Virus record (IMG/VR): IMGVR_UViG_3300042691_007361
Location: 1 to 64,000 of that record
Length of the DNA: 64,000 bases
Source: a virus
Reading direction: 5' to 3' (one strand)
The position numbers and the translations under genes were made by a program. Position 1 is the stretch's first letter. Each line of letters starts with the position of its first letter. The notes under the pieces were generated by a model, which worked only from the letters and a program-made list of their open reading frames with translations, did not search any database and was not told the origin of the DNA. Positions 18,602 to 18,670 of the stretch are shown here, piece after piece.

Positions 18602-18670
18602 ACTGATTTGGATCAGTATAAATAGGTGCTTAAGTCCAAAGCGTTTGAGATGTTATATCTCCGGGTGCAC
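18602..18670 (+). ncRNA. Pistol self-cleaving ribozyme
   Basis: P1 ACUGA/UCAGU; loop UUUGGA pairs with UCCAAA (pseudoknot); AUAAAUAG linker; P2 GUGC/GCAC; UUAAG; GCG; P3 GAGAU/AUCUC; G^U site at 18665/18666. Element-for-element match to the env25-type pistol consensus. Confidence 0.88.

Follow-up and report, generated by a model that had tools for sequence, protein, structure and literature searches.

The window analysed here, a 64,000-nt stretch of DNA (positions 1 to 64,000 of IMG/VR record IMGVR_UViG_3300042691_007361), comes from a viral record of 106,795 bp that is 89% complete. The DNA polymerase of this phage is only ~36% identical to Vibrio phage proteins, and a megablast search of positions 17500–21000 against GenBank phages gave no match. 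On the plus strand, an ORF of 118 aa (18234–18590) ends with its stop codon 11 nt 5′ of a complete pistol ribozyme (18602–18670), which is followed by a structured RNA of ~100 nt (18666–18766, hereafter the module), by the rest of a non-coding block (18767–19486), and by the gene of a Ro60-fold protein (19487–20872). The ribozyme and the module together form a cassette that opens a structured non-coding block of ~900 nt before the Ro60-fold (DUF2828) gene. According to the preliminary description, the ribozyme stands directly after a YodL-like gene; the position holds, with a gap of 11 nt to the end of the ORF, but the name does not, as searches with the ORF at 18234–18590 gave no match to Pfam at E ≤ 10 or to PHROGs. 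No homologue of this ORF was found in the flanks of 35 related loci, and the small ORFs around the cassette are not conserved in relatives. Matches to sigma-70 promoters and terminators around the ribozyme do not exceed the count in shuffled sequences, and ARAGORN found no tRNAs in the window. The stretch 18591–19486 lacks a long ORF and folds at z = −5.7 against shuffles, with covariation in part of it, in agreement with the downstream ‘ncRNA block’ of the preliminary description. Beyond the module, the block contains a twister-like element, stem-CAGCA repeats and a terminal GC-rich hairpin. Its portion at 18960–19486 is conserved upstream of the Ro60-like gene, as found by blastn to L002–L019 and L035, and 35 close loci with this gene have in common with the window only the gene and the 3′ two-thirds of the block.

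Anatomy of the pistol ribozyme

When the whole 64-kb window was scanned against Rfam 15 with cmscan, one match reached the gathering threshold, namely Pistol (RF02679) at 18602–18670 on the plus strand. It covers model positions 1–68 of 68 and scores 42.8 bits, the gathering threshold being 34.5, with an E-value of 1.8e-4 calculated over 64 kb, both strands, and 4227 families; the match recurs in narrower scans and in a search of the whole genome. In the cmscan alignment, P1 (18602–18605 with 18614–18617) is paired at 4/4 positions, including one compensatory pair, and the pseudoknot, spanning 18607–18640, joins UUUGGA (18607–18612) to UCCAAA (18635–18640) through 6/6 pairs. The linker AUAAAUA lies at 18618–18624, P2 consists of GUGC (18626–18629) and GCAC (18667–18670) with 4/4 pairs, and P3 (18644–18651 with 18657–18664) is paired at 7/8 positions. 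P3 is flawed at its third pair, where U18646 faces C18662 (marked ‘v’ by cmscan), and the basal pairs below it, next to the active site, are two G-U pairs.

The predicted scissile bond lies in the two-nt junction G18665-U18666, at model positions 63/64, the counterpart of the scissile G53-U54 of env25 (PMC6154101; PMC4604425); the P3–P2 junction of pistols is strictly 2 nt long (PMC4604425). The catalytic or conserved residues of the class are purine-32, the G33-C41 pair, G40, which acts as the general base, and G42 (PMC6154101). In env25 numbering, purine-32 of the window copy is A18633, G33 is G18634, G40 is G18641, C41 is C18642 and G42 is G18643, and the set of important residues, to which the AAA of the linker belongs, is complete. 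Seven of eight defining features of pistols were examined; six are present, and for the seventh, a continuous P3, the helix forms 7/8 pairs. Judged by its sequence, 18602–18670 encodes a true pistol-class self-cleaving ribozyme, cleavage itself being predicted. A pistol at exactly these coordinates, with this 6-bp pseudoknot and this G^U site, had been proposed in the preliminary description, and the above-threshold Rfam alignment bears it out in each respect. The accompanying statement that all pistol elements are present applies to P1–P3, the pseudoknot, the catalytic nucleotides and the junction, and has to be qualified by the single U-C mismatch in P3.

The structured RNA downstream of the ribozyme

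The module (18666–18766) is recognised by homology and covariation, and is proposed to be the 3′ cleavage product. It begins with a single-stranded 5′ segment, UGCAC followed by UGCACGAAGUU, and continues with a short closing stem around three hairpins. Similarity to four other pistol loci (L044, L048, L130 and L151) spans 18615–18763 at ~75% identity; the homology ends ~95 nt past the pistol, and the flanks of these loci are unrelated to the window. Two further relatives of the cassette were picked up by means of a motif from its downstream part. The alignment of pistol plus module from the window and its six closest homologues (7 sequences, pseudoknot included) is paired in 98.2% of its cells and holds 10 pairs with changes on both sides, a number reached by 0/500 shuffles, and slid controls gave 31–48% pairing and 0–1 covarying pairs. 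The consensus fold of the module has 7 covarying pairs. Compared with the six homologues, the window copy itself carries double compensatory changes in P1, in P3 and in 2/6 pseudoknot pairs, where A-U has become G-C and G-C has become A-U with pairing kept. These double changes in the pistol and the module therefore point to selection on the fold rather than to decay.

No Rfam family matches the module at E ≤ 10. With a covariance model built from the module by itself (R1), further copies were detected in L019 (50 bits) and L015 (27.5 bits), two relatives with the Ro60-like gene, in which the module lies 240–350 nt upstream of that gene, and a scan of metagenomes for the module core added 12 loci. 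After removal of duplicates, viral and metagenome contigs hold 14 distinct cassettes of ribozyme plus module, of which 10 are headed by a pistol and 4 by a hammerhead core; the pistol count takes in L161, which the pattern match left unclassified and which was assigned by eye from its sequence. The predicted cut falls exactly 5 nt before an invariant UGCAYGAAGUU in 14/14 cassettes, and these 5 nt are the 3′ strand of either pistol P2 or hammerhead stem I. While the downstream module is constant, the upstream neighbour may be an ORF, a GOLLD-like RNA or a twister-like element, and the gene after the module also differs between loci. In GOLLD-type loci, a 140-aa ORF starting MKVLVNKCYGGYG (L044:4805–5227) lies ~42 nt past the module; no homologue of it was found in the window. 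On comparison of these sequences, the pistol forms the 5′ half of a portable unit composed of a ribozyme and a structured RNA of ~100 nt.

In L015 and L019, the place of the pistol before the module is taken by a hammerhead core, consisting of CUGAUGAG, stem II, CGAAAC, stem III and GUC, and such a core occupies the same position in L158/L169 and L159/L164. The catalytic core and stems I–III of these hammerheads were recognised by eye, and the 5 nt after the cut (UGCAA, UGCAC, GGCAA) co-vary with the partner strand of stem I. Their Rfam scores are below gathering: with the RAGATH-1-hammerhead model, the sites in L015 and L019 reach 35.5 and 32.6 bits (gathering 56.3), and Hammerhead_3 gives 24.6 bits (gathering 48.5). 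The exchange of pistol and hammerhead at a fixed cut distance argues that it is the ribozyme which makes the 5′-OH end of the downstream RNA. On the simplest reading, the selected function would be the creation of this 5′ end, for which either ribozyme class suffices. In the preliminary description, cleavage was expected to part the upstream mRNA from the ncRNA and to leave a 5′-OH on the latter; this role, still a predicted one, is strengthened by the pistol being always accompanied by the same downstream RNA beside a varied upstream neighbour, and by the hammerhead core that replaces it in four distinct relatives with the cut at an identical distance.

A ribozyme joined to a structured RNA might also be a 5′-UTR device, giving the next gene a standard, structured 5′-OH leader that stabilises it or tunes its translation, with no free ncRNA; it would then be a natural counterpart of engineered ribozyme insulators, which cut off variable upstream RNA. 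Processing of polycistrons for stability or translation is a standing proposal for bacterial ribozymes (PMC6765202), and the short distance of ~42 nt between the end of the module and the 140-aa ORF of GOLLD-type relatives would suit a leader. In the window, L015 and L019, however, the next ORF is 240–720 nt away behind more structured RNA, the twister-like element in the window's stretch would cut the leader again, and the gene to be tuned is not conserved between loci. We consider a leader function unlikely, and prefer release of the module as a separate RNA.

The mismatch in P3 raises the question of whether the window copy is in use at all. A survey with a degenerate pistol pattern led to at least 118 IMG/VR contigs; the pseudoknot is a perfect 6/6 in 114/128 phage pistol sites, and the surveyed sites are therefore taken as real pistols. 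The third P3 pair is formed in 94/95 distinct parsed phage pistols, the lone exception being the window copy, and a mismatch anywhere in the first five P3 pairs occurs in 9/95; since the parser demanded 8 of 9 pairs, these counts are somewhat biased to clean helices. A GU junction is found in 71/95 of the parsed pistols. The window pistol scores 42.8 bits, compared with 52–56 bits in its relatives, and with its mismatch it may be slower or less active than a typical pistol. As a separate observation, the pistol at L156:603–664 (= L168) has U in place of the highly conserved C41-equivalent (AAGUGU, not AAGCGU), by which the G33-C41 pair becomes G-U; its score is nonetheless 51.9 bits.

Another interpretation of the flaw is that recombination in a hypervariable region brought in the cassette, which is now decaying, its pistol crippled and without a current role. 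Such a history would account for U18646-C18662 as the sole unpaired case at the third P3 pair among 95 pistols, for the score below that of the relatives and for the lack of conservation of the surrounding small ORFs. It agrees poorly with the intact catalytic nucleotides and 2-nt GU junction, with the compensatory double changes in P1, the pseudoknot and P3, with a P2 in which 4/4 pairs form, against 3/4 in most relatives, and with a score still above gathering, and we regard decay as improbable.

Neighbouring RNAs and the Ro60-like gene

The twister-like element at ~19106–19215 (plus strand), recognised by eye, combines stems P4 and P5 with a core that is invariant between copies and with a long insert in P5 that varies. 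P4 and P5 covary among 13 copies; copies in relatives occur in L008, L009, L011–L016, L079 and L156. By eye, its core motifs fit what we take to be the twister consensus. No Rfam twister model matched 19106–19215 at E ≤ 10 in a 941-nt scan, and RF03160 had no match in the genome; the P5 insert of ~60 nt may explain this miss. Type-P1 twisters cut near their own 5′ end. In L156/L168, L161, L019 and L158/L169, the element lies directly 5′ of the pistol or hammerhead. We hypothesise that such a tandem, if the element is active and cuts near its own 5′ end, would give trimmed ends to the RNAs on either side and leave over a spacer made of ribozyme only.

In the window, the twister-like element lies downstream of the pistol on the same strand, and cuts at 18665/18666 and ~19109/19110 would bracket an RNA of ~444 nt with a 5′-OH and a 2′,3′-cyclic phosphate, which an RtcB-type host ligase could circularise or join, as both ribozyme classes leave ends that RtcB joins (PMC6765202). 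Excision for ligation is nevertheless very improbable: the Rfam twister-P1 model has no match to the element even at E ≤ 10, no RtcB was found in the genome of the phage, and in relatives the element stands upstream of the pistol or hammerhead, so that relatives do not share the bracket. A chance likeness to the pistol consensus, for which the modest score alone might be quoted, is refuted by the E-value of 1.8e-4 over the window and 4227 families, by the 52–56 bits of the homologues and by the compensatory changes.

Several further RNA-like elements accompany this region. Across relatives, the non-coding island before the Ro60-like gene includes pistol and hatchet ribozymes that pass Rfam gathering and hammerheads below threshold; the hatchet (RF02678) is found at L035:2587–2748 with 79.8 bits (GA 51), ~1.25 kb upstream of the Ro60-like gene. 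The stem-CAGCA repeats of the window (18992–19048 and 19229–19282) give weak matches of 20–33 bits to Dictyostelium Class I RNA, and weak matches of this type are also present in L012, L016, L009, L014 and L035. In the Class I RNA model, as in the repeats, a CAGCA-type motif comes after a short terminal stem, and the likeness is probably convergence; the repeats, which are conserved in relatives, are candidate protein-binding RNAs. At 20802–20912, across the stop codon of the Ro60-like gene, the window weakly matches the alpha-proteobacterial tmRNA model in the 3′ portion of that model, and such a match recurs at the same place in L006, L008, L009, L011, L012, L014, L016 and L019 (21–36 bits over all copies). 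The match may mark an element resembling a tRNA or a Y RNA, or just conserved sequence that matches by accident.

All six viral loci with pistol and module have a match to GOLLD RNA (RF02032) just upstream of the cassette, with E-values of 1e-20 to 1e-32 and scores of 84–123 bits, short of the gathering score of 150. The matches lie at L151:1646–2044, L048:3518–3916 (minus strand), L044:3926–4325, L156:37–436, L130:2320–2717 (minus strand) and L155:641–1036. In L151 and L048 the pistol begins 5–6 nt past the end of the GOLLD match, and the 3′ end of GOLLD may be set or capped by the ribozyme; we found no literature on a ribozyme at this end. The genome of the window phage contains no GOLLD match at E ≤ 1. 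The records of L044 and L048 (G001 and G002) are phages of 119–123 kb, distantly related to that of the window and with a few small genes of this region in common; in the genomes checked, a GOLLD-like RNA and a Ro60-like gene occupy roughly the same place as alternatives, and not together.

The product of 19487–20872 (plus strand; DUF2828/DUF7788; phrog_850, ‘RNA-binding protein’) belongs by sequence to DUF2828 and DUF7788 and not to Pfam TROVE, and a sequence search of the PDB with it gave no match. Its AlphaFold2 model has a pLDDT of 83 and a pTM of 0.80. In a Foldseek search of the PDB with this model, the top 13 matches are all Ro60/TROVE proteins (E 5e-8 to 2e-5; TM 0.31–0.62, at least 0.44 for all but D. 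radiodurans Rsr), with alignments of ~500–570 columns over the whole length, among them Thermus phage phiLo Ro60 and Xenopus Ro60–RNA complexes. Judged by its predicted structure, the protein has the Ro60 fold (TROVE + vWA).

The cassette precedes the Ro60-like gene in the window, in L015 and in L019. A general link between pistols and Ro60 was considered and rejected, as the flanks of 118 other pistol loci contain no DUF2828 gene. No pistol at gathering score was found among 17 close DUF2828 relatives that were scanned, and the connection with the Ro60-like gene is, in view of these two sets of loci, local and not general. Dependence of the module on a phage Ro60 was likewise rejected: two genomes, 100% and 94% complete, that carry GOLLD, pistol and module have no homologue of the gene. 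The released RNA might possibly serve as a ligand of the Ro60-like protein.

Proposed role and related systems

We propose that the pistol cuts out the conserved downstream RNA with a defined 5′ end, and assign this reading a probability of about 0.65. A plus-strand transcript would run from the 118-aa ORF through the pistol, which would fold into P1, the 6-bp pseudoknot, P2 and P3, and the 2′-O of G18665 would attack the adjacent phosphate. Cleavage of the pistol type leaves a 2′,3′-cyclic phosphate upstream and a 5′-OH downstream (PMC4604425, PMC6765202). The upstream mRNA would thus end in the 64-nt body of the ribozyme, a structured 3′ terminus that carries the 2′,3′-cyclic phosphate, and the downstream RNA would be released with a 5′-OH at U18666; it should dissociate, because it would be held by the 4-bp P2 only. 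Pistols cut near their own 3′ end (PMC4604425), here at a predicted distance of 5 nt from it, and are therefore suited to clean trimming of a downstream RNA. The purpose would be a fixed 5′ end, independent of promoter and host RNases, for 18666–18766 and any further part of the block before the Ro60-like gene that remains joined to it. Cleavage, its 5′-OH product, the free RNA of ~100 nt and the function of that RNA are what we infer from these arrangements.

A broader and more tentative proposal, which we would put forward as possible rather than probable, is that the cassette represents an undescribed family of phage ncRNAs whose 5′ end is always made by a ribozyme, in ‘ribozyme-punctuated’ ncRNA operons that serve a Ro60-like protein or accompany GOLLD. 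If this were true, pistol and hammerhead would be interchangeable at the module, with twister-like and hatchet elements nearby in the same operons. A long transcript would cut itself, without host RNases, into RNAs with 5′-OH and 2′,3′-cyclic-phosphate ends, and these RNAs would serve the Ro60-like ring protein in some phages and accompany GOLLD in others.

To our knowledge, pistols have no assigned natural substrate, and the cassette offers a concrete candidate with a defined product. The constant cut distance with either ribozyme is as expected if the 5′ end of the product is the selected trait, and the locus ties ribozyme processing to Ro60-like proteins and to GOLLD RNA. Apart from glmS, the roles of the self-cleaving ribozymes of bacteria and phages are still ‘largely elusive’ (PMC6765202). 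What is new here is the conserved downstream RNA and the exchange of pistol and hammerhead at one site; the pistol itself belongs to a known family, and pistols near phage genes are already known (PMC4604425). No description of the cassette or of the exchange, and none tying pistols to GOLLD or Ro60, was found in the literature that our search reached, many journals lying outside it.

Among known systems, GOLLD loci (RF02032; 10.1101/2024.12.08.627333) resemble the present one in that six relatives carry the cassette 5–400 nt downstream of a GOLLD-like RNA, in an ncRNA-rich region, and differ in that the window's own genome is without a GOLLD match. Bacterial rsr (Ro60) loci that include an adjacent Y RNA, for instance YrlA (PMC4201824), and the Ro60 of Thermus phage phiLo (PMC12135203), similarly place a structured ncRNA immediately beside a Ro60-fold gene on the same strand. 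In contrast to them, the window has no Rfam Y-RNA match, its protein is DUF2828/DUF7788 and not Pfam TROVE, self-cleaving ribozymes are not described at those loci, and the cassette also occurs in complete phage genomes without a Ro60-like gene.

The pistol family itself (RF02679), including env25 and the representatives from Lysinibacillus sphaericus and Alistipes putredinis (PMC4604425, PMC6154101), has the same architecture, catalytic nucleotides and phage association, sharing P1, the 6-bp pseudoknot, the AUAAA linker, P2, P3 and the 2-nt GU junction. The window copy stands apart through its U-C mismatch at the third P3 pair and through its tie to a specific conserved downstream RNA, which we did not find described for pistols. 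Type I and RAGATH-1 hammerheads (RF03152, RF00008) hold the homologous position in relatives with the same cut distance and look interchangeable with the pistol in their role, whereas their fold and catalytic core are different and their Rfam scores in the relatives fall below gathering. The theta (minimal HDV-like) ribozymes beside phage tRNAs likewise lie flush against a structured ncRNA, and have been proposed to make the end of the adjacent RNA without host RNases (PMC10879173). In theta ribozymes the cut falls at the 5′ end of the ribozyme itself, and it is the 3′ trailer of an upstream tRNA that is removed (PMC10879173), whereas the pistol of the window has its predicted cut close to the 3′ end of the ribozyme, and the RNA whose 5′ end it would create lies downstream and is no tRNA.
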